Assembly (NCBI GenBank): GCA_965216945.1
Contig: CBDCGU010000003.1
Location: forward strand, 3,868 to 67,867
Length of the DNA: 64,000 bases
Direction: 5' to 3'
Source of the DNA: Acidimicrobiia bacterium
GTDB taxonomy: Bacteria; Actinomycetota; Acidimicrobiia; Spongiisociales; UBA5794
Under the pieces are notes generated by a model. That model had not been told where the DNA came from. It ran no database searches and saw nothing but the letters and a program-made list of their open reading frames with translations. Below, piece after piece: positions 33,299-57,611 of the stretch. The position numbers were made by a program, and so were the translations under genes. Position 1 is the first letter of the stretch, and each line of letters begins with the position of its first letter.

Positions 33299-34162
33299 TC
33301 AGAGCTCGGCCAGATACTCCTGACGCCACCGCTCCGTGCTCTCGACCTGGTTGAACGTGTAGACGTGGACGCCGGCAATGTTCGCCACCGGATCGACGAG
33401 CGTGCCGGCCATGTCCTCGAGCAGCTCGTCGGGGCTGTAGCCGCCCGGCTCGACGAAGGAGCGCAGCAGCCCGCGGTGACGGCTCAGGAACCGCATTGAG
33501 CGTCCGACGCCGATCCGAGCGGAGATCCGCATGAGCTTGAGACGGTCGGCAACTCCCGGAACGCCGATCACCGCCGGCAGGCGGATGCCGCTGGTGCGCA
33601 TGTCACGCAGCCACGTAGTGATCGCCTCCGCGTCGAAACACATCTGGGTCGTCATCGACGTGGCGAAGGGTTGTTTGTCGTGTAGCGCCAGCCGGGCCGT
33701 TTCGTCGTCGAAGATGTGGTGCCCCTCCGGGTAGGACCCGATGCCGATCTCATCGAACTCTGCGCCGAGCTCGGCGATTGCCCGCAGCAGCGAGCCGGCG
33801 TCGAAGAACTCGCCGGCCTCTGCGGCGTCCCCGCCGATGACGAAGATACGCCGGATCTCGAGGTCGTCGATCCGGGCGAGGAGCTTCTCCAGATGCGTCC
33901 GATCGTGGATCATCCGTGCCGACAGGTGCGGGATCACGTCGAAGCCACGGCGCCGCAGCACGGCGGCGAGCTCGATCGTGTCTTCTAGTGGCTTCACCGG
34001 TGACGCCGTCACGGAGACCGCTGCGGCCGGGGGCAGATACGCCACCTGATCGAGCACGTTCTTCAGCGGTATCACCTCGAAGATCGCGTTCTCCAGCACG
34101 CGGCGGATCGCCGCCCGCTGCGCTTCGTTGAGTTCACGTTCCATGGGCGGGGGGCTCCTCAT
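33299..34162 (-). CDS. Methylenetetrahydrofolate reductase-like protein (second MetF paralog, short form)
   Basis: 287 aa MetF-family protein (EVIPLKN...ISARMIHDRTHLEKLLARIDDLEIRRIFVIGGDAAE...). Start abuts the mttB-family stop, making it the last gene of the corrinoid methyltransferase operon. Confidence 0.7.
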   Translation of the reverse strand: MRSPPPMERELNEAQRAAIRRVLENAIFEVIPLKNVLDQVAYLPPAAAVSVTASPVKPLEDTIELAAVLRRRGFDVIPHLSARMIHDRTHLEKLLARIDDLEIRRIFVIGGDAAEAGEFFDAGSLLRAIAELGAEFDEIGIGSYPEGHHIFDDETARLALHDKQPFATSMTTQMCFDAEAITTWLRDMRTSGIRLPAVIGVPGVADRLKLMRISARIGVGRSMRFLSRHRGLLRSFVEPGGYSPDELLEDMAGTLVDPVANIAGVHVYTFNQVESTERWRQEYLAEL

Positions 34163-35697
34163 GTGTCAGAGTCGGGGAACGAGCTCTTGCGACGGTCGAT
34201 CCAATCGACGAGCTCGGCGTCGATCGCCTCATCGAGCGCCGGCGGCTCGTAGTCGGCGAGCATCTGCTTCCACTTGGCGTTGGCGCGCTGGACGGCGTCC
34301 CGACTCCCTTCGAGCTCCCATTGCTCGAAGCTGTTGTTGTCGGCGAGATCGGACCGCCAGAAGGCGGTTTCGAAGTTGGCCAGCGTGTGCTCGGTTCCGA
34401 GGAAGTGCTGCCCGGGCCCCGTCGCGATCATCGCATCGAGGGCAAGGGCGTTGTCGTCCACGGCGACGCCCGCAACCCACCGCTCCATCATCGTCGCTTG
34501 GATGGAGTCGATGATGAACTTCTCGTAGCCGACGGTGAGGCCGCCTTCGAGCCATCCAGCGGAGTGGAGCACGAAGTTCACCCCGGCCTGGACGGTGGGG
34601 AGAAAGGTGAGGGCGCTCTCGTAGGCGGCTTGGGCGTCGGCAACCTTCGACGCAGTGAAGTTCCCGCCGGAGCGGAACGGCACACCCAGCCGTCGCGCCA
34701 GCTGGGCCACGAGATAGAGCATCAGCGCAGGCTCAGGGGTGCCGAAGGTCGGGGCGCCCGATTGCATCGACATGGAGCTGGCGAAAGATCCGAAGATCAC
34801 AGGCGCTCCAGGACGGACGATCTGCGTGAACGCCATGCCTGCCATGGCCTCGGCGAGAGTCTGGGTCGCTGCCCCCGCCACGGTCGACGGCGCCATCGCC
34901 CCCGCCAGGATGAACGGAGTCACCAGCACGGCCTGATTGTTCTCGGCATACACCTTGGCAGAGCCGAGCATGGCGTGGTCCCAGGACATCGGGGAGTTGG
35001 CGTTCGCAAGGGCCAGCACGAACGTTCGCTCCTGCAACGCGTCGTCGCCGAACAGCACCTTGACGATGTCGATCGTGTCCTGGGCACGGTCGGGGTGTGT
35101 CACCGACCCCATGAAGGGTTTGTCGCTGTACTTGATGTGGGTGTACACCATGTCGAGATGACGCTTGTTGACCGGCAGGTCGACCGGCTCACAGAGAGTG
35201 CCGCCCGCATGATGGAGCGCAGGCGACATATACGTCAGCTTGGCGAGGTTGCGGAAGTCCTCGATGGTGGCGTAGCGGCGGCCGCCTTCCAGATCGCGCA
35301 CGAAAGGGGGCCCGTAGACGGGTGCGAACACCAGATGCGGGTCGCCGATGACGACTGAGCGCTCGGGGTTGCGTGCGTGCTGGGTGAACTTCTTCGGCGC
35401 TGTGGCTTGGATGAGCTGCCGGCACATCCCGCGGGGAAAGCGCACACGAGTCCCGTCGACATCGGCCCCGGCCGCGGCGAAGATCCGCACCGCCTCCTCG
35501 TAGCCGACGATGTCGATTCCCACCTGCTCCAGCAGGGTCTCGGCGTTCTCCTCGATGAGGCCGAGAGCTTCGGCCGACAGCACTTCGACCGGAGCCAGGT
35601 TGCGGGTGAGGAACTTCTGCTGCTCGATGGCCTTCGACACCCGCGCCGCCTGGCGTGCCGAGCGACCCCCGCCGCGCCGTCCCCGTCGTTCGCTCAT
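34159..35697 (-). CDS. MttB-superfamily (non-pyrrolysine) quaternary-amine:corrinoid methyltransferase, glycine-betaine (MtgB) type
   Basis: 512 aa trimethylamine methyltransferase (MttB) family over the full length with no in-frame amber codon. The genomic context (corrinoid protein, RACo, MtrH-like, DMGDH) points to a glycine betaine/quaternary amine substrate. Start ATG overlaps the RACo stop (ATGA). Confidence 0.8.
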   Translation of the reverse strand: MSERRGRRGGGRSARQAARVSKAIEQQKFLTRNLAPVEVLSAEALGLIEENAETLLEQVGIDIVGYEEAVRIFAAAGADVDGTRVRFPRGMCRQLIQATAPKKFTQHARNPERSVVIGDPHLVFAPVYGPPFVRDLEGGRRYATIEDFRNLAKLTYMSPALHHAGGTLCEPVDLPVNKRHLDMVYTHIKYSDKPFMGSVTHPDRAQDTIDIVKVLFGDDALQERTFVLALANANSPMSWDHAMLGSAKVYAENNQAVLVTPFILAGAMAPSTVAGAATQTLAEAMAGMAFTQIVRPGAPVIFGSFASSMSMQSGAPTFGTPEPALMLYLVAQLARRLGVPFRSGGNFTASKVADAQAAYESALTFLPTVQAGVNFVLHSAGWLEGGLTVGYEKFIIDSIQATMMERWVAGVAVDDNALALDAMIATGPGQHFLGTEHTLANFETAFWRSDLADNNSFEQWELEGSRDAVQRANAKWKQMLADYEPPALDEAIDAELVDWIDRRKSSFPDSDT

Positions 35698-37706
35698 CGC
35701 TCCTCCTTCTCGATGCGCCGGCGGCGCCGGCGTCCCGTGACGCCGACCGCCTCTTGACGTGCGGAGGCCGGCAGCGTCACGAGTGTCGAGAGATGGGGTG
35801 CCGGCTCGGTGCCGTGTGGGAATGCCATCGCCGCCACGAAGAGATCCTGGAAGCGAGGCTCGGTCGCCGTCTCCACCTTCTCGACATCGGCGGCGACCGC
35901 GGCCATCTCGCTCCGTTCGGTGCCGGAGAGGAGGGCGCGCACCGCACCGAGGCCGGAGGCGTTGCCCGCAGACCGCGCCTGGGAGAGTGGGATGTCCGGA
36001 ATCAGGCCGAGCACCATCGCGTAGAGCGGGTCGATGTGAGAACCGAATGCTCCGGCGAGTCGGATCGTGTCGACGGTCGTGTGCCCGGAACGCTCCCGCA
36101 ACAGGTCGATGCCTGCTCGCAGCGCCGCCTTCGCCAGCTGGATGGCTCGCACGTCGTTTTGCGTGATGCGCAGCTCCGGTTGCCCGCGATGCAGGACGTA
36201 GGCATGGGTGCGGCCGTCGGCGACGATGCGGTCGCTGCGGGCCGTGAGCGCGCCGTTCATCTTCCCCTGGGGATCGATGATGCCGGCGAGGAACATCTCA
36301 CCGATCACCTCGATGATGCCCGAGCCGCACACACCGGCGATGGCGACGCCGGCGCTGCTGTCGCTCCACCCCGGATCGTCGGACCAACCGTCGACGCCGA
36401 TGACAGCAAACCGGGGCTCCAAAGTCGCCGGATCGATTCGCACCCGCTCGATGGCTCCGACGGTTGCCCGCACCCCACAGCTGATCTCGCCACCCTCGAG
36501 GGCCGGACCCGTGGGGCTCGATGCTGCATAGAGACCCGCACTACTGCCGAGGACGATCTCTGCATTGGTGCCCACGTCGACGAGCAGCTGCACGTCATCG
36601 GCGCGATGGGGCCCTTCGGCGAGGATCGCCCCTGCCGTATCGGCACCGACGTGGCCGGCGATGCAGGGACCGAACGTCGCACGAGCGCTCGGAGCGGCGA
36701 TGCCAACCGCGGCGGCAGTCGTCACCACCGGCTCGCTGGTTGCCAGCGTGAAGGGTGCCGTGCCGAGCGGCGTCGGGTCGAACCCGAGGTAGAGGTGGTG
36801 CATGATCGGATTGCCCACGAGGAACACCTCGAGCAGGCGATCGGCGTCGACATCGGCCTGCACGAGCAACTCTGCCACGAGATCCGCCACGGCGTCACGC
36901 ACGGCGGCCGTCAACTCGGTTCGGCCGTCACCGTGCATCATGACGTACGAGACGCGGCTCATGAGGTCTTCACCGAACCGGATCTGTGGATTCATGATGC
37001 CGGCCGTCGCCAGTAGCTCACCGGTTCCGAGGTCGCACAGATAGGCGGCGATCGTCGTCGATCCGATGTCAACTGCAACGCCGACGATGTGGTCGACGAA
37101 CCCCGGCCACACGGCGACGACTTCACCGTCCCGCACCGCAGCCGTAACCTCGAGCTCCCCGCCGGCCAGCACGTCGCGGAGACGGGCCAGCGTCCCGTGC
37201 TCCACGCTCAGATCCTGCAGGTTCCACTGCTCTTCGAGGGCGTTGAGCAGTGCCGTATGGTCGCTGACTGCATCGCCCAGGCTCCGTAGCGCCACCTCCA
37301 CGTAGCGCAGGTCGACCAGGGGATCCAGCACCAGACCGGCGAGGTCGACGTCCTTCCGCACGACTTGTTTGTGGACCTGGCTCTCCGGGGGGATGTCGAT
37401 GATGATGTCGCCGAGCACCACGGCTCCACAACCAAGTCGATGTCCAGGCGGCATACCCCGTTTGGCATCGTATTTGCGCTCGTTGTCCGACCAATCGCCG
37501 AGGGCCCCGGCCGCCGAGCTGATCTCCCATTTGGGAAACTCCCCGAAGGAGGGCACGACACGGCATCGCCCGCAGATGCCACGCCCTCCGCACACCGAAT
37601 CGAGGTCGGCGCCGGCCACCCGGGCCGCGTCGAGGACCGAGATGCCGGCGGGCACGACGGCCTCGAGACCGGATGGCGTGAAAACGATGCGGGGTGTGCG
37701 TGTCAA
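35694..37706 (-). CDS. Reductive activator of corrinoid enzymes (RACo/RamA-like): [2Fe-2S] ferredoxin domain + ASKHA ATPase
   Basis: N-terminal plant-type ferredoxin CGGRGICGRC. Long ASKHA-fold region (DIGSTTIAAYLCDLGTGELLATAG...). Start is uncertain: the long ORF begins inside the upstream gene. The first start after the upstream stop is TTG 37706; GTG 37808 is the alternative. Confidence 0.65.
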   Translation of the reverse strand: MTRTPRIVFTPSGLEAVVPAGISVLDAARVAGADLDSVCGGRGICGRCRVVPSFGEFPKWEISSAAGALGDWSDNERKYDAKRGMPPGHRLGCGAVVLGDIIIDIPPESQVHKQVVRKDVDLAGLVLDPLVDLRYVEVALRSLGDAVSDHTALLNALEEQWNLQDLSVEHGTLARLRDVLAGGELEVTAAVRDGEVVAVWPGFVDHIVGVAVDIGSTTIAAYLCDLGTGELLATAGIMNPQIRFGEDLMSRVSYVMMHGDGRTELTAAVRDAVADLVAELLVQADVDADRLLEVFLVGNPIMHHLYLGFDPTPLGTAPFTLATSEPVVTTAAAVGIAAPSARATFGPCIAGHVGADTAGAILAEGPHRADDVQLLVDVGTNAEIVLGSSAGLYAASSPTGPALEGGEISCGVRATVGAIERVRIDPATLEPRFAVIGVDGWSDDPGWSDSSAGVAIAGVCGSGIIEVIGEMFLAGIIDPQGKMNGALTARSDRIVADGRTHAYVLHRGQPELRITQNDVRAIQLAKAALRAGIDLLRERSGHTTVDTIRLAGAFGSHIDPLYAMVLGLIPDIPLSQARSAGNASGLGAVRALLSGTERSEMAAVAADVEKVETATEPRFQDLFVAAMAFPHGTEPAPHLSTLVTLPASARQEAVGVTGRRRRRRIEKEER

Positions 37707-37716
37707 CGGTCGACGA

Positions 37717-38619
37717 TCAGCCGGCGGCGCGACGTCTGTTGCTGCGACGCCGGCCGCGCTCCTCGCCGCTTGCGGGCGGCGTGCGGTAGTGCCTGATCCA
37801 CGCGGCACAGTCGTTGTCGACGCCGCGCAGGACGTCTGCGGCCCGGATCGACTGCATGATCTCCGGCTCCAGCGGGTTTGTGATGGCCGACGTGAGCCCG
37901 GCGCCGATCGCCATGGCCAGGAAGGCTGCGTTGATGCCGGCACGGTTCGGCAGACCGAAGCTGACGTTCGACGCTCCGCATGTGGAGTTGACCTGCAGCT
38001 CGTCGCGCAGCCGTCCCACGAGATGCAGGACCTGCCGCCCTGCAGTCGCCATGGCGCCGATCGGCATGACGAGCGGGTCGACCACGATGTCCTCGCGACC
38101 GATGCCGTAGTCGTGCGCCCGGTCGACGATCTTCTCCGCAACCGAAAAACGGACATCGGGGTCTTCGGAGATGCCCGTCTCGTCATTGGTGATCGCCACC
38201 ACCGCGGCGCCGTGCCTGGCGACGAGCGGCAGAACCCGTTCGAGTGACTCGTCCTCGCCCGTCACCGAATTGACGAGCGCCTTGCCTTGGTACACGGCGA
38301 GCCCCGACTCCAGCGCCTCGATGATGGAGGAGTCGATGGAGAGTGGCACATCGGTCAGCGACTGGACGAGTTGCACGGCGTCGGCGAGGATCGTCGGCTC
38401 GTCGGCCAGCGGGATCCCGGCGTTGACATCGAGCATGTGCGCCCCGGCGGCCACCTGGGCCAGGGCATCCCTCTCCACACGGCTGTAGTCGCCGTTGCGC
38501 ATCTCCTCGGCGAGCAGCTTCCGGCCCGTCGGGTTGATACGCTCGCCGATGACGACGAAGGGCCGCTCGAAACCGAGCAATACCTCCTTCGTCGCCGAGC
38601 CGATGACGGTGTCGGTCAT
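37717..38619 (-). CDS. Pterin-binding methyltransferase (MtrH/AcsE-like methylcorrinoid:tetrahydrofolate methyltransferase)
   Basis: ATG 38619 (MTDTVIGSATKEVLLGFERPFVVIGERINPTG...). DHPS-like pterin-binding barrel: MLDVNAGIP, LSIDSS, GKALVNSVTGE, NSTCGASNVSFGLPNR. Confidence 0.7.
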   Translation of the reverse strand: MTDTVIGSATKEVLLGFERPFVVIGERINPTGRKLLAEEMRNGDYSRVERDALAQVAAGAHMLDVNAGIPLADEPTILADAVQLVQSLTDVPLSIDSSIIEALESGLAVYQGKALVNSVTGEDESLERVLPLVARHGAAVVAITNDETGISEDPDVRFSVAEKIVDRAHDYGIGREDIVVDPLVMPIGAMATAGRQVLHLVGRLRDELQVNSTCGASNVSFGLPNRAGINAAFLAMAIGAGLTSAITNPLEPEIMQSIRAADVLRGVDNDCAAWIRHYRTPPASGEERGRRRSNRRRAAG

Positions 38620-38969
38620 GATGTCGCTCCCTCGGATCTGTCGATACCGCCTGCGGCCACGAGTCGGCGCAGCACATCCTTCGTGAAGGCCGACTCCAGC
38701 GCCTCTACCGCCGCATCGACCTCGGCCTGCAGATCCTCGCTGCACGGCCGAGAGACACGGCGCCACTCGGCGAGATACTCATTCGTGGTCTTCTTGTCCG
38801 CGTTGACAGCCGCCTGATCAACCGCGATCTGGAAGCGGGAGTGGAGCTGCACGCTGGCTTTGCGACGGCCGGCTCGGGCCGTGACCTGGGCTGGGATGTC
38901 ACGCCAGTAGATGGTGATGAGCTCGGGCCTTGCGGCAGCGTTTCTGCCGTTGTCACGATTACCCCGCAT
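38616..38969 (-). CDS. Conserved hypothetical protein within the methyltransferase operon
   Basis: 117 aa ORF. Its start overlaps the DUF1638 stop and its stop overlaps the MtrH-like start, indicating translational coupling. No recognisable domain. Confidence 0.4.
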   Translation of the reverse strand: MRGNRDNGRNAAARPELITIYWRDIPAQVTARAGRRKASVQLHSRFQIAVDQAAVNADKKTTNEYLAEWRRVSRPCSEDLQAEVDAAVEALESAFTKDVLRRLVAAGGIDRSEGATS

Positions 38970-39606
38970 GCTTCACCTCCGGGCGGACCTCGATCGGGCG
39001 CCCGCGTCGCTCACCGAATCGCACGAGCGTGGTTTCCAAATCGCCGTAGCCGACCCGGCGATGCTCGAAGCGCAATCCGAGCCGATCGGCGGCAGCCCTC
39101 GCCTTCGCCACGAGCGCCTCCGTGGGTCGTTGCGAGAGGTAGACGAGGCGGGTGTAGTTGCCGAAATACGCATCGAGGAGGTGGGGGTGGCGGTCGAGAC
39201 CGAGCCCGGCCCACATGATGCGATCGAAGTGCTTGGTGAGGTAGTCGGTCAGGTAGAACGTGCCGATCTCCTCATCGGCGAGCGCGGCGAACACCGGCGA
39301 GGTGGCGTAGAACTCGTAACAGTGATCTCCGGGCAGACGGGTGGCGCCGTAGCGGGCGACGATCGGGTCGAGCAGACCGCCGGTGCCGCAGTCGGCATAG
39401 CCGACGAGGACCCGTTCGTACACATCGCCGGCTGCCGCCAGCCTCGCCTCGACGGCGCCGGGGATCCGGTCGGGCCGGTTGTGCAGCGAGGCGGGCAGAC
39501 ACTCGAGCTCGACGTGTTTCCAGCCGCTCGCCCTGATGACGTCGGCCAGCTCGCGGGCGAGGGCGCCGCATGCCAGCACCAGGACCCGGGGTGGAGCGTC
39601 AGACAT
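38959..39606 (-). CDS. DUF1638-domain protein (accessory protein of corrinoid methyltransferase systems)
   Basis: 215 aa. N-terminus VLVLACGALARELADVIRASGW and GYADCGTGGLLD, typical of DUF1638, which co-occurs with MttB-family/corrinoid gene sets. Confidence 0.55.
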   Translation of the reverse strand: MSDAPPRVLVLACGALARELADVIRASGWKHVELECLPASLHNRPDRIPGAVEARLAAAGDVYERVLVGYADCGTGGLLDPIVARYGATRLPGDHCYEFYATSPVFAALADEEIGTFYLTDYLTKHFDRIMWAGLGLDRHPHLLDAYFGNYTRLVYLSQRPTEALVAKARAAADRLGLRFEHRRVGYGDLETTLVRFGERRGRPIEVRPEVKHAG

Positions 39607-40309
39607 CCTCGGACGCCAGCAGGCGGCGGCGGGTCACGAGCTCTTTGGCGGTTTCGGCTGCCACTGCGGCATCGCGGCAGTAGGCGTCGGCGCCGACGGC
39701 GTCGCCGAACTCCTCGTTGAGGGGCGCTCCACCGACCAGCACAAGGTAGTCGTCGCGGATGCCTCTCTCTTTCATCGCCTCGATCACGACTTTCATGTAG
39801 GGCATCGTGGTGGTGAGAAGCGCCGACATCCCCAAGATGTCGGGTTTGTGCTGCTCGAGCGCATCCAGGTACTCGTCGACGTCGGTGTTGATGCCGAGAT
39901 CGACGACGTCGAACCCGGCCCCTTCCAGCATCATCGCCACGAGGTTCTTGCCGATGTCGTGAATGTCGCCTTTGACGGTGCCGATCACGACCTTGCCGAC
40001 GTTGGCGGCGCCGGTCTCGGCGAGCAGCGGCCGGAGGATCTCCATTCCCGCCTTCATCGCATTTGCGGCCAGCAACACCTCCGGGACGAAGAGGATGCCG
40101 TCCCGGAAGTCGATGCCGACGATCCGCATGCCTTCGACCAGGGCCTCGTTGAGCACGTCGCCGGCGGTCCACTCCCGCGACAGGAGGATGTTCGTGCCCT
40201 CGACGATCTCCTCGGCGAGGCCGTCGTAGAGGTCGTCGTGCATCTGTTCGACGAGCTCTTCGTCCGACAGGCTGCTGAGGTCGAGTTCTTGGTCGTGTTC
40301 GTCAGTCAT
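39599..40309 (-). CDS. Cobalamin-binding corrinoid protein (MtgC/MtbC-like)
   Basis: ATG 40309 (MTDEHDQ...). B12-binding cap plus Rossmann domain with the DxHxxG motif (KGDIHDIGKNLV) and MSALLTTT. Confidence 0.8.
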   Translation of the reverse strand: MTDEHDQELDLSSLSDEELVEQMHDDLYDGLAEEIVEGTNILLSREWTAGDVLNEALVEGMRIVGIDFRDGILFVPEVLLAANAMKAGMEILRPLLAETGAANVGKVVIGTVKGDIHDIGKNLVAMMLEGAGFDVVDLGINTDVDEYLDALEQHKPDILGMSALLTTTMPYMKVVIEAMKERGIRDDYLVLVGGAPLNEEFGDAVGADAYCRDAAVAAETAKELVTRRRLLASEDV

Positions 40310-40398
40310 GGTGGTCTCGCGGGGCGGGCTGGTGGCAACCAACCGGTGCCGTCCCACGACCTGGTTTGGCTGTCCTTGATCCGGCCCGATGGTTCCAT

Positions 40399-40426
40399 GA
40401 TACGGAACGGTCCTACATGGTGGAAC
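40399..40426. promoter_or_regulatory. Conserved 28-nt cis-element GATACGGAACGGTCCTACATGGTGGAAC (copy 1) in the corrinoid-operon / dmgdh divergent region
   Basis: 24 of 28 positions are identical to 55267-55294 upstream of fhs. The element is built from overlapping imperfect palindromes of the type GTnCCAC-ATS-GTGGnAC. Confidence 0.5.
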
Positions 40427-40574
40427 ACTACAACACCGGCATCCCCCTCGCCACCCGTTCCGCTGCCGCCGGATCGACCCGGAGTCACATTGAACAGCCC
40501 TCTGGCGGGCCAGTAGCGTGGTTCTGGGAATGCGTCACCCGCCGCCGGCAGGTAGTGTTCCACCATGTAGCATC

Positions 40575-40591
40575 GTGCCACATCGTGGTAC
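40575..40591. promoter_or_regulatory. Palindromic site GTGCCAC-ATC-GTGGTAC immediately upstream of dmgdh
   Basis: 7-3-7 inverted repeat with one mismatch. Related to the sites at 55278-55294 and 57595-57611. Confidence 0.45.
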
Positions 40592-40630
40592 GCCGCGCCC
40601 AGCCACCACCCGCATGAAGGAGCAGACGTC

Positions 40631-43141
40631 GTGAGCGATCTACCCACGAAGGCAAAGGTCGTCGTCGTCGGCGCCGGCATCGTCGGGAACTCGGTCGTGA
40701 AGCATCTCGCCGAGCTCGGGTGGCGTGAGATCGTGCAGCTCGACAAAGGCCCACTCCCCAACCCCGGCGGCTCCACAGGACATGCGTCCAACTTCATCTT
40801 CCCGGTCGACCACAACAAGGAAATGGCCTACCTGACGCTGGACAGCCAGCAGCAGTACGAAGAGATGGGCGTCAACACGACGTGTGGTGGCATCGAAGTG
40901 GCCCGGACCGAGGCGCGCATGGAGGAGCTGAAGCGGCGTATGACGTCCGCCACCGCCTGGGGCATCGAGTCCAGGCTGCTCACCCCGCAGGAGGTGAAGG
41001 AGATGGTGCCGTTCATCGACGAGGGCATCATCCTCGGCGGATGGTACACACCGAGCGTCTCGGTCGTCGACTCCCTACGCGCCGGCACGATCATGCGAGA
41101 ACGTGCCATGGAGCTCGGGGCCCTCACCGTCTCCCCCAACACCGAGGTGACCGACGTCACCGTCGAGGACGGCGCCGTGACGGGAGTCACGACGGACAAG
41201 GGCCACATCGAATGCGAGTACGTCGTGATCGCCTGTGGTGTGTGGAGCCCGCGCATCGCGGCAATGGCGGGAGCGACCATCCCACTGACGCCCGCCGTTC
41301 ACCAGATGATCGACGTGGGGCCGCTCGAGCCGCTGCAGTCGACCAACAACGAGATCGGCTACCCGATCGTGCGCGACATGGACACGTTCTGCTACGAAAG
41401 ACAGACGGCGGGTTCCATGGAGGTCGGCTCGTACGCCCACCGACCGATCTTCCACCACCCCGACACGATCCCCTCGATCGAGGAGTCGCGGCTCTCCCCC
41501 ACCGAGCTGCCGCTGACGATGGACGACTTCGACCCCCAACTCGAACAGGCCCTGGAGCTGATGCCGTTCCTCGGCGACGCCGAGATCAAATACGGCATCA
41601 ACGGATTGCTCTCCCTGACACCGGATGCGATGCCCCTCGTCGGCGAGACGGTCGAGGTACGAAACCTCTGGTCGTGTGCCGCCATCTGGATCAAGGAGGG
41701 CCCGGGCACGGGCCGGGCGCTCGCCGAGTGGATGACCTATGGCTATCCGGAGATCGACCCGCACGCCTCGGACATCGCCCGTTTCTACACCTACCAGCGG
41801 AGCGAGCATCACATCCTCGAGCGCTGCGCCGAGCACTTCAACAAGACATACGGCATCGTTCACCCGCGCGAGCAGTGGGACTCGGAGCGGCTGAGCCGGA
41901 TCGCCCCGTTTCACGTGCGGACTCAAGCGCTGGGCGCCGTCTACTTCGAGGCCGGAGGGTGGGAGCGGCCCCACTGGTACGAGAGCAATACCCCGCTGCT
42001 GGAGAAGTACGCCGACCAGATCCCGGAGCGTCCCCACGAGTGGGATGCCCGATGGTGGTCGCCGATTCAGAACGCCGAGCACCTCGCCCTCCGCGAGAGC
42101 GTCGGAATGGTCGACGTGACAGCGTTCGCCATCTTCGACTTCACCGGACCTGGAGTGGTCGACTACATCGAGAAGATGGCGGTGAACAAGTGCGACCGAC
42201 CCGTCGGCGCGGCGATCTACACACCGCTGTTGAACGAGCAGGGAGGGTTCCGCTCCGACCTGACCATCATGCGCCTCGGCGACAGGCACTTCCGGGTCGT
42301 CACGGGTGGATTCGACGGAGGACGCGACAAGTACTGGTTCCGCAAGTGGCTGCCGCACGATGGGTCGGTGGTGATGGAGGACATGACATCCGCGATCTGC
42401 ACGGTCGGCGTGTGGGGCCCCAACGCCCGCAACCTCGTGAGCACGGTCACCCGCGACGACATCTCCAACGAAGGCTTCCGCTACGGCTCCGTCAAGCAGG
42501 TGACCATCGGGTCCATCCCATGCACGATGTTCAGGATCTCCTACGTCGGTGATCTGGGCTGGGAGATCTACACCAACATGGAGCACGGTCTGAAGCTGTG
42601 GGACCTCCTCTGGGAGGCCGGCCAGGAGTTCGGCGTGGTCCCGGTCGGAGCCGGGGTCTACGGGACGACGGGGCGGCTCGAGAAGGGATACCGGCTGATG
42701 GGAGCCGAGCTCGAGTCCGAGTACACGCCGATCGAGGCCGGTCTGGCCCGGCCCAAGGTGAAGGCCGCCGACTTCATCGGCAAGGCGGCCTATCTCGCCG
42801 CCCGCGAGGAAGAGCCCGCCGCCATCTGCTGCACGCTCACGATGGAGTCGCACGTCTCCGACTCCGGTATTGCCCGGTTCCCGATGGGCGGCAACGAACC
42901 GATCCTCACGCTCGACGGCCGGCGCATCGTCGATGGCAAGGGCCGAGTCTCGCGAGTCACCAGCGCCGGCGCCGGTCCCTCGGTCGGCAAATACCTGCTT
43001 CTCGGATACCTGCCGCCCGAGTACGCCGTCGTGGGCACCGAGTTGCAGATCATGTACCAGAACGAGTTGTTCCCGGTGAAGGTGGCCGTAGCCGGGAGCA
43101 CACCGCTGTTCGATCCCGACGACACGCGCATGAAGGCCTGA
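40631..43141 (+). CDS. Dimethylglycine/sarcosine dehydrogenase family (FAD oxidase domain + GcvT-like folate-binding domain)
   Basis: 836 aa. Dinucleotide fold VVVVGAGIVGNS. GGSTGHASN carries the conserved His for covalent FAD. C-terminal aminomethyltransferase-like domain. GTG start with a GAAGGAG RBS. Confidence 0.85.
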   Translation: MSDLPTKAKVVVVGAGIVGNSVVKHLAELGWREIVQLDKGPLPNPGGSTGHASNFIFPVDHNKEMAYLTLDSQQQYEEMGVNTTCGGIEVARTEARMEELKRRMTSATAWGIESRLLTPQEVKEMVPFIDEGIILGGWYTPSVSVVDSLRAGTIMRERAMELGALTVSPNTEVTDVTVEDGAVTGVTTDKGHIECEYVVIACGVWSPRIAAMAGATIPLTPAVHQMIDVGPLEPLQSTNNEIGYPIVRDMDTFCYERQTAGSMEVGSYAHRPIFHHPDTIPSIEESRLSPTELPLTMDDFDPQLEQALELMPFLGDAEIKYGINGLLSLTPDAMPLVGETVEVRNLWSCAAIWIKEGPGTGRALAEWMTYGYPEIDPHASDIARFYTYQRSEHHILERCAEHFNKTYGIVHPREQWDSERLSRIAPFHVRTQALGAVYFEAGGWERPHWYESNTPLLEKYADQIPERPHEWDARWWSPIQNAEHLALRESVGMVDVTAFAIFDFTGPGVVDYIEKMAVNKCDRPVGAAIYTPLLNEQGGFRSDLTIMRLGDRHFRVVTGGFDGGRDKYWFRKWLPHDGSVVMEDMTSAICTVGVWGPNARNLVSTVTRDDISNEGFRYGSVKQVTIGSIPCTMFRISYVGDLGWEIYTNMEHGLKLWDLLWEAGQEFGVVPVGAGVYGTTGRLEKGYRLMGAELESEYTPIEAGLARPKVKAADFIGKAAYLAAREEEPAAICCTLTMESHVSDSGIARFPMGGNEPILTLDGRRIVDGKGRVSRVTSAGAGPSVGKYLLLGYLPPEYAVVGTELQIMYQNELFPVKVAVAGSTPLFDPDDTRMKA

Positions 43142-43143
43142 CG

Positions 43144-43911
43144 ATGCGTGTGCTGGTGTGTGTCAAGCGTGTGCCGGCCCCAGGGGCCAAGATCGCCGTC
43201 ACCCCGGACGGGCGAGACGTCGACACCAATCTCCTCGGGTTCACCGTCAGCCCCCACGAGGAGTGTGCGGTGGAGGAAGCGGTCCGCATCGTCGAGAACC
43301 ATGGCGGCAGCGCCACCGTGCTCACGCTTGGGCCCCCCGAAGCCGAGGAGCAAATCCGCACGGCCTACTCGGTGGGTGCCACACACGGGGTGCTGATCGA
43401 AACGCCCGTCACCGACTGGGAGCCCATCGCCACGGCATCAGCCATCACGGCGACGGTTCAGGAGCTGGAGGCAAGGGACGGACCATTCGACCTGCTGCTG
43501 TTCGGCAACGAGTCGGCCGACTCGGGAGGATTCCAGGTCGGCATCCGCGTCGCAAGAGCGCTTGGTCGCCCCATCGTCTCAGGCATCAAGGGCATCGACA
43601 TCGGCGACGGCACGATCACAGCCCGACGGGAGACACCGCACGGCTCCGAGGTCTACGAGGTACCACTCCCGGCGGCGGTCGCCGTCAAAGAAGGAATCAA
43701 CCTGCCCCGCTACCCGACCCTCAAGACCCGCATGTCGGCCAAGAAGCTCCCGGTGGAGAAGACGGCCGCCGAGCCGGCACCGGGGCCGCAGTCAAAGGTC
43801 AGGTTCGAGGCGCCGCCTCAGGTGGCTTCGTCCGTGGAGATCCTCGGGAACGGGCCGGATGCGGCACGTGCCGTGGTCGACGTGCTGGAAGAGCTGGGGA
43901 TCGTCGGATGA
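43144..43911 (+). CDS. etfB: Electron transfer flavoprotein beta subunit
   Basis: MRVLVCVKRVP...LLLFGNESADSGGFQVG...LPRYPTLKTRMSAKKLPVE. Its stop overlaps the etfA start. Confidence 0.85.
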   Translation: MRVLVCVKRVPAPGAKIAVTPDGRDVDTNLLGFTVSPHEECAVEEAVRIVENHGGSATVLTLGPPEAEEQIRTAYSVGATHGVLIETPVTDWEPIATASAITATVQELEARDGPFDLLLFGNESADSGGFQVGIRVARALGRPIVSGIKGIDIGDGTITARRETPHGSEVYEVPLPAAVAVKEGINLPRYPTLKTRMSAKKLPVEKTAAEPAPGPQSKVRFEAPPQVASSVEILGNGPDAARAVVDVLEELGIVG

Positions 43912-44879
43912 CGTATCTCTATCTCCTCGAGCACGACCGTGGCGAGATGAACGATGCGACATTGGGTGGGCTGACCGCCGCCGTCGAGCTGGCTCGCGGC
44001 CACGGGACGGTGGTCGACGTCGCCGTCTTGGGAAGGAGTGGTGACGCGCTTGCGGCGGACCTCGCCGGCTCGGGAGCCGCCACGGTCCATCAGGTCCACC
44101 ACGAGCTGCTCGCCGACTACGGACCGGACGCTTGGGCAGAGGCCCTGAGCGCCCTGGGAGACGCAGTGGGAGCGACCGCCTATCTCGCCACGGGCACCGA
44201 TCGGGGCAACGAGGTGCTGGCCCACGTGGCGGCGATCGCCGGCACTGCGATGGTCGCCAACTGCCTCGATGTCCACGACACCGGCGAAGCGTGGGAAGTC
44301 AAGCGCCTGCGCTGGGGCGGGAGCCTGCACGAGATCACCCGGCTCGAAGCTCCGCTGAGGATTGCCACATTTGCCCCACACACCACCGAACCCAAGACCG
44401 TGTCGGGTGACGCTCCCACGATCACCACATTCACCCCGGATCTCAGCGAGCGCGCTGCGATCACTCTGGTGCGGGATCGGGTCGTGACCGCCGAGGGTGT
44501 CACCCTGGCCACCGCACCCGTGGTGGTCAGCGGCGGGCGCGGCGTCGGCAGCGCCGAAGGCTTCGCCGCTCTCGAGGAACTGGCGGATCTGGTGAATGGA
44601 GTCGTGGGTTGCAGCCGTGTCGTGACCAACAACGGGTGGCGGCCGCACTCCGATCAGGTCGGGCAGACCGGTACCGTGGTCGCCCCCGATCTGTACATCG
44701 CATGCGGCATCTCCGGCGCCGTCCAGCACTGGGTTGGCATGATGAACGCCAAACACGTCTTGGCCATCAACACGGATCCGGAAGCCCCGATGGTCACCAA
44801 GGCCGACTGGGCGGTGGTCGCCGACCTGCACGCAGTGCTCCCCGCCGTGGTCGAGGAGATCAAGCGCCGCAGGGGTTGA
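43908..44879 (+). CDS. etfA: Electron transfer flavoprotein alpha subunit
   Basis: C-terminal FAD-binding domain [15 protein letters not shown]...[20 protein letters not shown]. Confidence 0.85.
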
Positions 44880-45067: not shown

Positions 45068-45613
45068 GTGCCCGACACCACGAGAACCCGGTTCACCCGC
45101 CTCTACGAGGAGTATTACGACGACGTGCTCGCCTACTGCAGCCGCCGCATCGGCCCAACCGAGGCCGACGACGCCACCGCCGACGTGTTCGCCGTGGCCT
45201 GGCGCCGCATCGATGACATCGAATGGCCTACGGTGCGTCCCTGGCTGTACGGCGTCGCGCGCGGCGTCCTCGCCAATCGTCTTCGGTCGAGTGGGCGACG
45301 GAGGCGGCTGCTGGATCGCATTTCCGGCATGGCTCCCGTCTTCGAGGAGCTGCCCGAGGTGCAGGTGGTGCGACGCGCCCAGGACGAAGCCATCATCGCC
45401 GCCGTGCAGAGTCTCAAACCCACCGATCAGGAGGTGCTCTTGCTCGCCGCATGGGAGGAGCTCAAGGCACCCGAGATCGCACAGGCGCTCGGAATCTCCA
45501 CGTCGGCGGCAGAGCAGCGCCTGCATCGCGCCAAGAGGCGTCTTGCGGCGGCGCTGCCCTCGCACCAGGCCTCCACCAACCAGCCGCTGCGCTCCGGCGA
45601 TGGAGGCCGATGA
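45068..45613 (+). CDS. ECF-subfamily RNA polymerase sigma-70 factor
   Basis: 181 aa. Region 2 (YYDDVLAYCSRR...ADDATADVFAVAW) and region 4 HTH (ELKAPEIAQALGISTSAAEQRLHRAKRRL). Confidence 0.75.
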   Translation: MPDTTRTRFTRLYEEYYDDVLAYCSRRIGPTEADDATADVFAVAWRRIDDIEWPTVRPWLYGVARGVLANRLRSSGRRRRLLDRISGMAPVFEELPEVQVVRRAQDEAIIAAVQSLKPTDQEVLLLAAWEELKAPEIAQALGISTSAAEQRLHRAKRRLAAALPSHQASTNQPLRSGDGGR

Positions 45614-46695
45614 TGTCCGTCGAGGCAGCCTTCCGACAGCTTCAGGAAGCAAACCCGGTGCCTGAGCCCGGGGCGCTCAGACGGCAGCGCCGGGGCGCAG
45701 CCGACTTCCACGCCGAGGCCAAGCGAAGGAGCACGACCTTGCAGACACAGCAGATCCCTCGCGTCGCCACCCGCCCCGACGAGTCACATCGGCACTCGAG
45801 ACGGTGGGCGGCAGCCCTCGCCTCCGGCGTCGGACTGCTGGCCGTGTTCGTCATCTTCTCCGGAATCGGCGACCGTGGATTGGACACCGTCGCCGGGGAG
45901 GGTGTCTTGACGGTCGATGTGCTCACCGACCTCGACATGTCGCCATTCACCGATGCAACCGGGGACGTCGCCACCGGCTTCGACATCGACCTCCTTGCAG
46001 AGATGGCTCGGCGCAGCGGCCTCACCCTCGCTACCTCCGAGAGCCTGAGCGTGTTCTCCGCACAGCCCCAGGCGCACCTCTTCCTGGCGGAGTTCGGGAC
46101 GGTCGACGTGACGACCCGCGGGTACCGGGCGGACATCTACAGGTATGCAGACGCCATCAACGTGAGCGGTGACCGGCTGGAACGCCAAGCCCGATTCACC
46201 GACCCCTACTTCCTCCAGGACTTCGCATTGATCGTCGATCCTCAGGCGTCGCCCGATGTGACGTCTACCGCCGACCTGACCGCCGGCGATGTCGTGGCCG
46301 CTTGGGGTGATGCCAATGCGTCCTTTTGGATCGACGACAATCTCGCACCAAGGGGCATCGTGCCCGGCTACGTATTCGACGCAGGACCACGCCGGCCGGG
46401 CTCGGCGTCTCCGCAGACACCATTGGACTCCGTCGCCGCCGGCGAGGCGGTGGCTGCCATCGTGCACTCCGCCATCGCATCCGACTTGCTGCAGCAGCAT
46501 CCGCACCTGAGCGTCGTCGACGTCATCGACGCCAACGTCCCGCTCGGCTTCGCCGTCGACCCGGACAACCCGGCGCTCCTGATGGCGCTCAACCGAGCGC
46601 TGGCGGAGATGATCGAAGATGGCTCCTATCAGGCGATCTACGACACGTGGTTCGACGATCCAAGCGGGAGCGTGGCCGCAGGAGAACGCAGCTGA
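45610..46695 (+). CDS. Putative anti-sigma factor: N-terminal cytoplasmic segment, single TM, extracytoplasmic family-3 solute-binding-protein-like (SBP_bac_3) domain
   Basis: ATGATG start overlapping the sigma-factor stop. TM segment AAALASGVGLLAVFVIF. Periplasmic region with GFDIDLLAEMARRSGL...AAIVHSAIASDLL, amino-acid-binding-protein-like. Confidence 0.5.
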   Translation: MMSVEAAFRQLQEANPVPEPGALRRQRRGAADFHAEAKRRSTTLQTQQIPRVATRPDESHRHSRRWAAALASGVGLLAVFVIFSGIGDRGLDTVAGEGVLTVDVLTDLDMSPFTDATGDVATGFDIDLLAEMARRSGLTLATSESLSVFSAQPQAHLFLAEFGTVDVTTRGYRADIYRYADAINVSGDRLERQARFTDPYFLQDFALIVDPQASPDVTSTADLTAGDVVAAWGDANASFWIDDNLAPRGIVPGYVFDAGPRRPGSASPQTPLDSVAAGEAVAAIVHSAIASDLLQQHPHLSVVDVIDANVPLGFAVDPDNPALLMALNRALAEMIEDGSYQAIYDTWFDDPSGSVAAGERS

Positions 46696-48687: not shown

Positions 48688-49637
48688 TCATGCCGATCGG
48701 GCTCGTCGCAGCACGACGTCGATCGGAGTCGCCTCCATGTCGCCGAGCTCCTGGACGTACTCGTAGCCGAAGCGTCCCTTGATGCACAGGTGGCCGTTGG
48801 TCACCGAGTGATCGATCGGTGAGGTGACCTTGACGATCCGGTTGTCTTGCACGTGCAGGTCCAGATTGCACCCGACACCGCAGTAGGAGCACACGGTCCG
48901 GGTCACCGTCTGCTCCTCCTCGTTCCACATGTCCGCTTCACGCAGCTCGTACTCCGATCGGAACATCAATGCCCCGGTCGGGCACACCCCGATGCAGTTG
49001 CCACAGAACACACAGGCAGAATCGGTCAGGCCCGTGTCGAACTCTGTGGAGATACGGGCGTCGAACCCACGGCCGGCAACACCGAGCGCAAAGGTGTTCT
49101 GCGCCTCGGTCCCGCATGCCTGGACACACTTGTAACAGAGGATGCATTTGGAGTAGTCGCGCACATAGAGCTCGTTGTCGATCTTCACCGGCTGCGCGAC
49201 GGAGGCGGCCTGCTCGCCGTCTGGCGGAGCGTGATGACCGGGATGGCGGTGGTCGCGATCGTCCTGGGCGGGCTGTGCCGGGCCAAACCGATCAGGATCG
49301 GCTCCGTAGTCGTCGATCCACGCCTTGGTCGATGCATCGACGAGATCCATGTCGACGGAGGAGCCGAGCAGTTCGAAGACGAGCTTGCGGGAATGCCGCA
49401 CCCGCTCGCTGTCGGTGTGCACCACCATTCCCTCCTCGACGGGTCGGGAGCAGGACGGCACCAGCGCCCGTGAGCCCTCCACCTCGACCACACAGACCCG
49501 GCACACGTTGACCGGCGTCAGGTTGTCGAGGTAGCAGAGCGTGGGCTGCTCGCGGCCCATGCTCCGGCAGGCGTCGAGGATGGTCGAGCCCTCGGGCACG
49601 GCGGTCCCCGCCCCGTCGATGGTGACATGGACTTCCG

Positions 49638-49641
<4 letters not shown>
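48688..49641 (-). CDS. Formate dehydrogenase Fe-S subunit (NuoG/HylA-like): [2Fe-2S] ferredoxin + 2x[4Fe-4S] + Molybdop_Fe4S4 domain, lacking the molybdopterin catalytic domain
   Basis: ATG 49641 (MTEVHVTIDGAG...), overlapping the nuoEF-like stop (ATGA). 2Fe-2S region CYLDNLTPVNVCRVCVVEV. Ferredoxin CxxCxxCxxxCP motifs. C-terminal CSYCGVGCNLDLHVQDNRIVKVTSPIDHSVTNGHLCIKGRFGYEYV equals the N-terminal Fe4S4 domain of FdhF-type enzymes. Confidence 0.75.
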
Positions 49642-53449: not shown

Positions 53450-55246
53450 TCAGAACAATCCGACGACGTTGCCGTCCTCGTCGATATCGACATTCATGTA
53501 CGCAGGCTTCGTGCCGAGACCCGGCATGGTTCGCATCTCGCCGAGCAGCGGGTAGATGAAGCCGGCACCGACAGATGCGCGCACCTCCCGCACCGGCACC
53601 GTGAAGCCAGAAGGTGCGCCCTTCAGCGCCGGATCGTGAGAGATCGACAGATGGGTCTTCGCCATGCAGATCGGCAGATACCCGAATCCGGACCGCTCGA
53701 ACTCGGCGATCTGCCGCTCGGCGACCGGGGCGTATTCCACCTCGGCGGCTCCATAGATCTGCGTCGCGATCGCCTCGATCTTCTCCTTGATCGACCTGTC
53801 GAGCGGGTAGAGGAATCCGAACTTGGATGGCTCCTCGCACGCCTGCTCGACGGCAGCAGCGAGCTCCAACGCACCTTTGCCGCCCTCGGCCCAGTGGTTC
53901 GATCGCACGGCGGAGGAGGCGCCCGCATCCATCGCCGCCTCTTGGATGAGCTCCATCTCGCGCCGGGTGTCTGTCGGGAACTGGTTCACCGCAACCACCA
54001 CGGGCACGCCAAATCGACGGGCGTTGGCGACATGTGCCTTCAGATTGGAGAGCCCGGCGCGGAGCAGAGCGAGATTCTCCTCCGTGTAGGCCTTGTCGAG
54101 CGGTCTACCCGGCACGACCTTGGGACCGCCGCCGTGCGTCTTCAGGGCCCGCACCGTCGCCACCAAGACCACGCAGTCCGGCTTGAGGCCGGAGACCCGG
54201 CACTTGATGTCGAAGAACTTCTCCATACCCATGTCGGCACCGAAGCCGGATTCGGTCACGACGTAGTCCCCGATGTGGAGCGCCACCCTGTCGGCGAGGA
54301 TCGAGGAGTTGCCGTGGGCGATATTGGCGAACGGACCCGCATGGACGAAAGCGAGCTGCCCCTCGAGCGTCTGCATGATCGTCGGGTGGAGCGTCTCCTT
54401 CATCAGGACGGCGACTGCTCCGGCGACACCGACGTCCTCGAGTGTCACCGGCTCGTTGCTCTTCGAGGTGCCGATGACGACCCGCCCACAACGTTCGCGG
54501 AAGTTGCGCAGCGCCGAGGCATAGTCGGACCCGTCGACGAGGGCCAAGATCGCCATCAGCTCCGAAGCCACGGTGATGTCGTAACCGGTCTCACGCGGTC
54601 GCCCGTCCGCCGAGCCGCCGAGCCCGATGATCGTGTTACGGAGTGCCCGGTCGTTGACATCGACGACACGACGCCACGAGATCCTGTTGGGATCGAGGGA
54701 GATCCGTTCGAGCCCGAGTGCGGCGAGCCGGTCGTCGGTGAGCCTTCCCTCGTGGTACCAGCGGGCATCGATCGCGGCCGCAACGAGGTTGTGGGCCACC
54801 GAGATGGCATGCATGTCGCCCGTGAGATGGAGGTTGAACTCGTCCATGGGGATCACCTGGGAGTAGCCGCCACCGGCGGCACCACCCTTGATCCCGAACG
54901 TCGGGCCCATCGACGGCTGGCGGATGGCGGCGATCGCCTTGTGCCCGCGCCGCCCGAGCCCCTGGACGAGACCGATCGTCGTCGTGGTCTTGCCCTCGCC
55001 GAGTGGCGTGGGAGTGATCGCCGTGACGTCGACGTACTTGCCGTGCGGGTTGGCGCCGATTCTCTTGAGAGCGTCGAGGTGGACCTTGGCCTTTGTCGTG
55101 CCGAAGGCGATCAGGTCGTCGTCCTCGAGACCATGCCGACGGGCGACGTCGAAGATCGGCTCGACGGTCGCCTGCTGTGCGATCTCGAGATCGCTGGGAA
55201 CCCCGCTCATGGTTTCTCCGCGGTTGGTGAATCGGGCCGGGAGCAC
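53450..55246 (-). CDS. fhs: Formate--tetrahydrofolate ligase
   Basis: 598 aa FTHFS over the full length (TPTPLGEGKTTTTIGL...AVNQFPTDT...). Its stop is 130 nt upstream of the fdhA start. Confidence 0.9.
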   Translation of the reverse strand: MLPARFTNRGETMSGVPSDLEIAQQATVEPIFDVARRHGLEDDDLIAFGTTKAKVHLDALKRIGANPHGKYVDVTAITPTPLGEGKTTTTIGLVQGLGRRGHKAIAAIRQPSMGPTFGIKGGAAGGGYSQVIPMDEFNLHLTGDMHAISVAHNLVAAAIDARWYHEGRLTDDRLAALGLERISLDPNRISWRRVVDVNDRALRNTIIGLGGSADGRPRETGYDITVASELMAILALVDGSDYASALRNFRERCGRVVIGTSKSNEPVTLEDVGVAGAVAVLMKETLHPTIMQTLEGQLAFVHAGPFANIAHGNSSILADRVALHIGDYVVTESGFGADMGMEKFFDIKCRVSGLKPDCVVLVATVRALKTHGGGPKVVPGRPLDKAYTEENLALLRAGLSNLKAHVANARRFGVPVVVAVNQFPTDTRREMELIQEAAMDAGASSAVRSNHWAEGGKGALELAAAVEQACEEPSKFGFLYPLDRSIKEKIEAIATQIYGAAEVEYAPVAERQIAEFERSGFGYLPICMAKTHLSISHDPALKGAPSGFTVPVREVRASVGAGFIYPLLGEMRTMPGLGTKPAYMNVDIDEDGNVVGLF

Positions 55247-55266
55247 CCTAGCGCACAGTGTGCTGC

Positions 55267-55294
55267 GATACGGGACGGTCCCGCATCGTGGTAC
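55267..55294. promoter_or_regulatory. Conserved 28-nt cis-element GATACGGGACGGTCCCGCATCGTGGTAC (copy 2) upstream of fhs, divergent from the MFS gene
   Basis: 24/28 identity with 40399-40426. Contains the palindromes CGGGAC-G-GTCCCG and GTCCCGC-ATC-GTGGTAC. Confidence 0.5.
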
Positions 55295-57572: not shown

Positions 57573-57594
57573 TGCGACACCGCCATGCGGCACG

Positions 57595-57611
57595 GTACCA
57601 CATCGTGGAAC
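57595..57611. promoter_or_regulatory. Near-perfect 7-3-7 palindrome GTACCAC-ATC-GTGGAAC at the iclR promoter/5' end
   Basis: Same consensus as the sites at 40575-40591 and 55278-55294. Located 23 nt upstream of the preferred iclR start, a candidate autoregulatory operator. Confidence 0.45.

Follow-up and report, generated by a model that had tools for sequence, protein, structure and literature searches.

Four copies of a 35-bp double palindrome lie in three intergenic regions of a 64-kb stretch of DNA from an Acidimicrobiia bacterium; this whole stretch is hereafter called the window. We consider it likely that the four elements are operators of one IclR-family regulator, encoded at 56823-57572, which is predicted to repress its own gene, the mtg operon, dmgdh-etfBA, and fhs until an inducer is present. 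The sites are conserved in other loci, co-occur with the iclR gene, and co-vary with the recognition helix of the IclR protein. A preliminary description of this DNA had proposed the same protein as the common regulator of a methyl-group/formate oxidation regulon, and at the level of sequence that proposal is supported by conservation, iclR co-occurrence, and helix-operator co-variation.

The regulon is defined here within the 64 kb of the window, which has a G+C content of about 67%. Genes were called by a codon-usage score and then checked against Pfam and NCBIfam. Relatives of the window proteins carry the label Acidimicrobiia, and the organisms of the compared loci are all uncultured, represented by metagenome-assembled genomes (MAGs) or metagenome contigs.

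A doubled 7-3-7 palindrome

Rereading of the window sequence located all four palindrome-bearing sequences of the preliminary description, including the perfect palindromes at 40575-40591 and 57595-57611. Two of the four are the 28-mers GATACGGAACGGTCCTACATGGTGGAAC (40399-40426) and GATACGGGACGGTCCCGCATCGTGGTAC (55267-55294), whose identity had been given as 24/28 and is corrected here to 23/28; in mononucleotide shuffles of both intergenic regions, the best 28-mer match did not exceed 21, with a mean of 18. As had been described, both 28-mers sit in divergent intergenic DNA, one between mtgC (-) and dmgdh (+) (40310-40630) and the other between fhs (-) and an MFS gene (+) (55211-55415).

Overlooked at that stage was a weaker partner located exactly 18 bp from each of the four palindromes. 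The true unit is a 35-bp composite in which two 17-mers, each of the type GTnCCAC-N3-GTGGnAC (more loosely, GTnCC-N7-GGnAC), follow one another with a 1-base gap, and the window holds four copies, referred to here as operators A to D (Table 1). Operators A and B are inverted copies at opposite ends of the mtgC/dmgdh intergenic region; once B is reverse-complemented, 28 of its 35 positions agree with A. Operator A lies 83 to 117 bp upstream of the mtgC start (40309), its stronger 17-mer distal to mtgC, and there are 39 bp between the end of operator B and the dmgdh GTG (40631). Operator C is found 50 to 84 bp upstream of the fhs ATG (55210) and about 120 bp from the start of the MFS gene that shares this intergenic region. 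Operator D is separated from the iclR ATG (57572) by 4 nt.

Table 1. Predicted operators, regulator, and predicted target genes in the window
Feature	Position	Strand	Details
Composite operator A	40392..40426	-	plus strand reads GTTCCATGATACGGAAC-G-GTCCTACATGGTGGAAC; 18.5 and 18.7 bits
Composite operator B	40557..40591	+	GTTCCACCATGTAGCAT-C-GTGCCACATCGTGGTAC; 12.9 and 22.7 bits
Composite operator C	55260..55294	-	GTGCTGCGATACGGGAC-G-GTCCCGCATCGTGGTAC; 8.4 and 19.5 bits
Composite operator D (predicted autoregulatory)	57577..57611	-	minus strand reads GTTCCACGATGTGGTAC-C-GTGCCGCATGGCGGTGT; 26.2 bits
IclR-family regulator, 249 aa	56823..57572	-	HTH_IclR + IclR_C; recognition helix LPKSTVARLL
Predicted target operon mtgC-DUF1638-mtgD-ramA-mtgB-metF2	33299..40309	-	
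mtgC, corrinoid protein	39599-40309	-	Pfam/NCBIfam
DUF1638	38959-39606	-	Pfam/NCBIfam
mtgD, methyl-THF:corrinoid methyltransferase (pterin-binding)	37717-38619	-	Pfam/NCBIfam
RACo/RamA activase	about 35694-37706	-	Pfam/NCBIfam
mtgB, MttB family	34159-35697	-	without in-frame amber codon
metF2, MTHFR-like	33299-34162	-	
Predicted target operon dmgdh-etfBA	40631..44879	+	divergent from mtgC operon
dmgdh, dimethylglycine dehydrogenase	40631-43141	+	
Electron-transfer flavoprotein beta	43150-43911	+	
Electron-transfer flavoprotein alpha	43908-44879	+	
Predicted target fhs, formate-tetrahydrofolate ligase	53450..55210	-	MFS transporter gene divergent
Formate dehydrogenase genes	48688-53299	-	downstream of fhs

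Specificity within the window

The window was scanned with a weight matrix trained only on sites from other loci. Matches of at least 18 bits occur only at 40392, 40410, 40575, 55278, and 57595, and all five are intergenic in a window of which about 7.6% is intergenic DNA. The next-best matches score 12 to 13 bits and include the partner half of site B at 40557; at a threshold of 12 bits, there are 8 matches in the window versus 0.6 expected from shuffles. A loose pattern allowing up to 3 mismatches gives 10 matches versus 4.4 expected, and so the loose pattern alone is weak evidence, while the scored matrix separates the sites. The preliminary description had raised the matter of chance occurrence in coding regions; across the window, the matches of at least 18 bits are confined to three intergenic regions, and none is coding.

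A symmetric element of this kind might also act as RNA, in the form of a leader or attenuator hairpin, or its GGAAC segments might be -35 elements for the ECF sigma factor encoded in the window (45068-45613), both of which we regard as very unlikely. The palindromes can fold (z = -3.1 for composite C and -2.5 for B), but the four composites adopt different, mutually inconsistent folds, and those of A and D are no better than shuffles. Moreover, base identity is conserved rather than pairing, as changes at positions 3 and 15 (T/T, A/A, C/T) are not compensated. A covariance-model search against Rfam 15 gave no match at gathering score at the sites, the only matches in the window being a SAM riboswitch (3680-3768) and a marginal PYLIS_3 hit (34560-34659). 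The inconsistent folds, uncompensated pairing, and absent Rfam match led us to reject an RNA element. GGAAC does resemble the classic ECF -35 motif; however, symmetric sites are present in loci that have an IclR gene and no nearby ECF sigma gene, and the -35 reading was rejected on symmetry and IclR co-occurrence. The ECF sigma gene itself is followed by a 361-aa open reading frame (ORF) weakly similar to solute-binding proteins, and no operator was found near this two-gene region (45068-46695, +), which lies between etfA and a BHMT-like gene.

Conservation of the operator and co-occurrence with iclR

Comparison with other loci, which the preliminary description had suggested, revealed that the operator is kept at fhs and iclR in L001 and in the mtgC/dmgdh region in L005, L077, L046, and L107. 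In L001, whose IclR is 76% identical to that of the window, the iclR and fhs composites are kept and the flanks have diverged. In L005 (67% identity), the PocR gene is absent and iclR adjoins hutU, followed by fhs; the iclR operator is identical to that of the window, and a composite also occurs in the dmgdh/mtgC region. Composites are likewise kept in the dmgdh/mtgC region of L077, L046, and L107.

The preliminary description had also argued for autoregulation through the palindrome at the iclR promoter. Consistent with this prediction, all eight orthologues that were fetched by protein similarity alone (L001, L005, L008, L010, L101, L103, L104, and L107; 48 to 79% identity) carry the palindrome ahead of their own start, at a distance of no more than about 100 bp. 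The neighbors of these eight genes differ, encoding or corresponding to PocR, hutU, a hydrolase, selA, a PALP enzyme, and etfA, and PocR stands beside iclR in L001 only. A scan of one genome per species (185,579 species) with the 20-mer GTTCCACGATGTGGTACNGT gave 10 matches, 9 directly upstream of an IclR orthologue and 1 in coding DNA; the nine iclR-upstream examples (L011 to L020), found via the operator itself, show gene association and not motif conservation.

These loci also bear on whether the palindrome is read by the product of the gene divergent from iclR, an HTH_17-PocR regulator (57755-58537), rather than by IclR, an idea that we find exceedingly improbable. Site D does lie in the intergenic region shared by iclR and pocR, and PocR is syntenic in L001 to L004 and in L011. 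Yet the operator is found upstream of iclR without a nearby PocR in L005, L008, L010, L101, L103, L104, and L107, as well as in nine mtgC-adjacent loci; PocR heads a sulfide:quinone reductase/DsrE/DsrC cluster; and the operator co-varies with the IclR helix. PocR was rejected as the reader on the persistence of the operator in loci that lack it.

The surroundings of pocR have features of their own. Just upstream of the gene, whose probable start is the ATG at 57755, is a 9-bp periodic repeat, ATGCAK-NNN, in four to six copies (57677-57757, +). The in-frame reading in the window is MHMHERQNMHQMHRMHQMQQ, and in L001 (9836-9915, -) the repeat forms a separate small ORF, MQEMQKMQDMQLMQTMQQGLAP, overlapping the PocR start by ATGA. 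Conserved in two species, the repeat might encode a Met-rich leader peptide or serve as a repeat operator. Also in the iclR/pocR intergenic region, CGTGAAGCTCTTCACA (57641-57656) matches 9 of 10 positions of the Crp/GlxR-type consensus TGTGA-N6-TCACA, and its L001 counterpart is CGTGAAGATTTTCACG. Downstream of PocR (58534-61416, +) are genes for a type III sulfide:quinone reductase, a DUF1641/HMP protein, and DsrC- and DsrE-like proteins; this cluster for sulfide oxidation has no connection with the IclR sites. The sulfide:quinone reductase scores 639 bits against a "selenoprotein subtype" model, and the window copy has no in-frame stop.

A search with the MtgC protein returned 80 metagenomic loci, of which 77 were usable. 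In each of these, the 300 bp preceding mtgC were scanned at a threshold of at least 20 bits with a composite matrix whose training set was limited to the window, L001, and L005; in the background, a single position out of about 499,000 reached 20 bits. The composite was found upstream of mtgC in 15 of the 77 loci, including 9 of the 11 with an adjacent IclR gene versus 6 of the 66 without one (Fisher p = 1.4e-6). Among the latter six, L046 and L077 share the window layout, with dmgdh divergent from mtgC, and for the remaining four no upstream neighbor gene was identified.

Some mtgC loci depart from the window in other ways. Extra strong palindromes occur inside the mtg cluster (mtgC/DUF1638; RACo/mttB) at 1609 in L051, 5690 in L054, and 9516 in L046, where they may be internal operators; none was seen at the matching places in the window. 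A gene that by eye looks to be of the GntR type is inserted between dmgdh and mtgC in L027 (2083-2966), and the mtgC promoter of L070 (about 2340-2370) carries an unrelated palindrome, TTGTTGACA...TGTCAACAA. From these two loci, it looks as if other lineages use different regulators at the mtgC promoter.

The sarcosine oxidase promoter beside iclR in L008 has no site, and more distant IclR orthologues adjoin deoD or HD-domain genes, indicating that regulon content differs by lineage. In L101, an IclR orthologue (51% identical, with a PKST helix) is divergent from selA-selB, with a composite between them (8556-10001). This arrangement is a hint that the L101 lineage has selenocysteine synthesis in its regulon, which would fit the selenoprotein formate dehydrogenase of the window. 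Finally, a protein search with a 77-residue N-terminal fragment returned fragments only, of which two are labelled Chloroflexota and one Limnocylindrales; these matches are weak evidence that the mtgC-adjacent IclR clade extends beyond Actinomycetota.

The recognition helix and the operator co-vary

Every IclR protein that is associated with GTTCCAC-N3-GTGGAAC has the recognition helix PKST(V/A)AR. The two mtgC-adjacent IclRs without the GTTCCAC motif, from L040 and L072, have PTSTVAR instead, and their operator reads TTCCCnC-N3-GnGGGAA, with the outermost base pair changed from G to T. A Lys-to-Thr replacement in the helix is accompanied by a G-to-T replacement at the outer operator position. 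PKST occurs with GTTCC..GGAAC 17 times and PTST with TTCCC..GGGAA 4 times, with no discordant case, albeit the PTST clade is probably one evolutionary event, so that the co-variation is effectively one observation. This tally takes in three new proteins (loci L105, L106, and L107) whose operator type was predicted from the helix, and all three fit. P0230 and P0270, with PTST, have the operators TTCCCATGGAGTGGGAA and TTCCCATATTGTGGGAA beside mtgC, and P0261, with PKST, has GTTCCACAATGCGGAAC.

The regulator and its candidate ligand

The window IclR protein consists of an HTH_IclR domain (PF09339; E = 4e-14; residues 6 to 54) and an IclR_C domain (PF01614; E = 7.5e-21; residues 76 to 240). Eight IclR-family chains in the PDB match it at E < 1e-10, and TtgV (2xrn/2xro) is among the sequence matches (E = 4e-13). 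Its best NCBIfam match is the BhcR equivalog model (NF045644), at 141.9 bits, below the cut-off of 350 bits; scores with the IclR and AllR equivalog models are 64 and 54 bits, where the cut-offs are 380 and 406.

In Escherichia coli IclR numbering, the residues that contact glyoxylate or pyruvate are G160, A161, D212, S239, and S241 (PMC11323563, Table 1). The E. coli sequence used for the residue mapping reproduced all nine residues of the published table. The corresponding residues of the window IclR are P, A, A, G, and H. Across the clade, the positions of G160, D212, S239, and S241 are occupied by P, A/V, G/H, and H, respectively, and D212 and S241 are missing in all 20 members. Glyoxylate and pyruvate were rejected as effectors because these contacting residues are not conserved, and their replacement throughout the clade suggests that the ligand is something else. 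An intermediate of the regulated pathway is the obvious candidate for the predicted ligand.

Predicted target genes

The names mtgB, mtgC, mtgD, ramA, and metF2 follow the pathway nomenclature of PMC12478193. All parts of an MtgBCD-type cluster are present in the window, namely, an MttB-family methyltransferase, MtgC, a pterin-binding methyltransferase, RACo/RamA, and DUF1638. With the MtgC models the window protein reaches 210 bits, short of their "exception" cut-off of 370 bits, and betaine is assigned as the substrate by context (the adjacent dmgdh) and not by equivalog. Inside the MttB-family gene, the marginal PYLIS_3 match noted above (minus strand, 38.9 bits versus 38) is probably due to homology of the coding sequence and not to a working pyrrolysine insertion element.

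The formate dehydrogenase genes downstream of fhs may be co-transcribed with it. The gene for the catalytic subunit (51425-53299, -) has an in-frame TGA (53069-53071) in the context SCNRT-TGA-HAPSVAGL, and the canonical selenocysteine position of this codon indicates one selenoprotein and not two ORFs. The FeS N-terminal module of the enzyme (Fer2_4, Fer4, and Molybdop_Fe4S4) is a separate ORF (48688-49836), downstream of a NuoF-like gene.

Other methyl-transfer genes lie elsewhere in the window. Between the dmgdh and fdh clusters is a BHMT/MtgE-like gene (47363-48391, +; 376 bits, above cut-off), upstream of which the matrix scan of the window found no operator. The SAM riboswitch (+ strand, 75 bits) is followed by genes for a full-length MetH (1143 aa) and MetF (3916-8308, +). 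The organism thus has a SAM-controlled classical methionine synthase in addition to an MtgBCD system that is predicted to be under IclR control. Most MtgBCD genomes lack MetH (PMC12478193).

Promoter geometry and the proposed mode of regulation

Hexamers resembling -10 elements recur at the operators. The distal edge of operator A shares bases with a TAGTGT (40430 to 40425, minus strand), a TATCAT lies inside its proximal half, and another TAGTGT (40553-40558) overlaps the first two bases of operator B. TAG[TA]GT, which we classed as an actinobacterial TANNNT-type hexamer, is found at the operator edge of mtgC or dmgdh promoters in the window (A and B), L077, L046, L005, L038, L022, and L029. 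Where iclR lies beside mtgC, the clade has a conserved GGCTAGATT 10 to 17 nt upstream of the composite and, on the other strand, a TATGAT inside the weaker half that points toward iclR. At fhs, 9 nt separate operator C from a conserved -10-like GCTAGGGT on its downstream side (55250 to 55245, minus strand), a layout shared with L001; L005 has this hexamer ahead of fhs, with no operator. The junction of operator D is TACCGT, invariant as TAC(C/G)GT, and may be an embedded -10 element of iclR. A scan for the sigma-70 consensus found no promoter at operators A, B, or D, and its single promoter-like site is directed toward the MFS gene, so these candidate -10 assignments rest only on the recurring TANNNT hexamers.

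Repressors of the IclR family typically recognize inverted repeats overlapping the RNA polymerase site, and they bind as tetramers that ligand causes to dissociate (PMC5814911). A dimer of dimers is the DNA-binding form reported for the family (PMC5814911, PMC11323563), with which the four alternating half-sites of each composite are compatible. In the mechanism that we propose, the two 17-bp palindromes of an operator, centered 18 bp apart, would offer these four half-sites to an IclR dimer of dimers. IclR would probably sit on or next to the -10 element and transcription start of the mtgC operon, dmgdh-etfBA, and its own gene, and it would also bind just upstream of the fhs -10 element. Without inducer, the target genes would be repressed. 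A pathway-related small molecule would then release IclR, leading to the joint induction of betaine demethylation, dimethylglycine oxidation, and the formyl-THF-to-formate branch.

The overlap of the sites with -10-like hexamers suggests repression, and the site positions favor occlusion that an inducer would relieve. At mtgC, dmgdh, and iclR, the composite is at or downstream of the candidate -10 element, where a bound factor would block RNA polymerase. The fhs composite is placed differently: it spans about -22 to -56 and precedes the conserved GCTAGGGT, a position compatible with activation. The same IclR might therefore activate, or repress some promoters and activate others (for example, repressing iclR and mtgC and activating fhs), and the best NCBIfam match, BhcR, is an IclR-type activator with a dual role for which own-gene repression has been proposed (PMC11323563). 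The BhcR score of 142 bits against a cut-off of 350, however, indicates that the window IclR is not a BhcR orthologue, and we judge such activation unlikely, with inducer-relieved repression as the preferred reading.

Relation to known systems

The founders of the family, E. coli IclR and AllR, which repress the glyoxylate-shunt and allantoin genes, share the HTH_IclR and IclR_C architecture of the window protein and likewise have a site at the regulator's own promoter. The E. coli IclR box is palindromic with GGAA/TTCC-type half-sites, like the window operators. The differences are that the window operator has a 7-3-7 form and is doubled with an 18-bp spacing, that the predicted regulon covers betaine and C1 catabolism, and that G160, D212, S239, and S241 are not kept, so the effector would differ. 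TtgV and BlcR are IclR-family tetramers that occupy two adjacent inverted repeats as a dimer of dimers, an arrangement that the window IclR would share. Their effectors, regulons, spacing, and half-site sequences differ from those of the window IclR. Binding as a tetramer that ligand dissociates would be a further likeness to the E. coli IclR/AllR type (PMC5814911, PMC11323563).

BhcR from Paracoccus denitrificans is the IclR-type regulator of the beta-hydroxyaspartate cycle (PMC11323563). It resembles the window IclR in binding a divergent regulator/operon intergenic region and in its proposed autorepression (PMC11323563). In contrast, BhcR senses glyoxylate and activates (PMC11323563), and the glyoxylate-contacting residues are not conserved in the window protein.

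Work by Mausz et al. (2025) described cobalamin-dependent glycine betaine demethylation by MtgBCD, RamA, DUF1638, and MetF2 in aerobic Proteobacteria (PMC12478193). The window operon has the same part list, with dmgdh and C1 oxidation genes nearby (PMC12478193). The operator-less MtgE/BHMT-like gene of the window agrees with the constitutive MtgE reported for Ruegeria (PMC12478193). That system is Proteobacterial and no regulator was named for it (PMC12478193), whereas the window host belongs to Acidimicrobiia. Unlike the Proteobacterial system, the window also has a classical MetH-MetF pair under a SAM riboswitch.

A functional analogue is GbdR from Pseudomonas aeruginosa, an AraC-family activator of betaine, dimethylglycine, and sarcosine catabolism, in that one regulator serves successive steps of glycine betaine demethylation. 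GbdR belongs to an unrelated family, activates, has a different operator, and governs the oxygenase route (GbcAB) and not the corrinoid route. GbdR is reference 24 in PMC12478193.

Implications for betaine and C1 metabolism in Acidimicrobiia

The result is a concrete predicted regulator-operator pair for the corrinoid betaine route in Acidimicrobiia. Members of this class are abundant in soil, freshwater, and seawater, and few have been cultured. A full-text literature search found no paper linking an IclR regulator to MttB or MtgBCD betaine demethylation, and it was not until 2025 that a corrinoid route for demethylating glycine betaine was described in aerobic bacteria (PMC12478193). The understanding of IclR regulators is left unchanged; the mechanism class is conventional and is newly tied to a recently discovered pathway.

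The 35-bp composite model, with its K-type and T-type variants, is usable for regulon annotation in MAGs, and it predicts which C1 genes would be induced alongside betaine use (fhs, formate dehydrogenase, and possibly selAB). Also, the correspondence of Lys or Thr with G or T provides a compact specificity rule.

More tentatively, and with somewhat less than even confidence, we propose that one IclR subfamily is the master switch of MtgBCD and C1 oxidation in aerobic Acidimicrobiia, acting through a doubled 7-3-7 operator whose outer base is re-specified by a single residue, Lys or Thr, with which the recognition helix begins, sensing a pathway metabolite other than glyoxylate or pyruvate, and in some lineages including the selenocysteine machinery. 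If true, this switch would span abundant aquatic clades and possibly soil Chloroflexota, and its effector might be, for example, betaine, dimethylglycine, sarcosine, or a signal from formate or a C1-folate. The selenocysteine machinery, which the selenoprotein formate dehydrogenase requires, would in certain lineages come under the control of IclR too.
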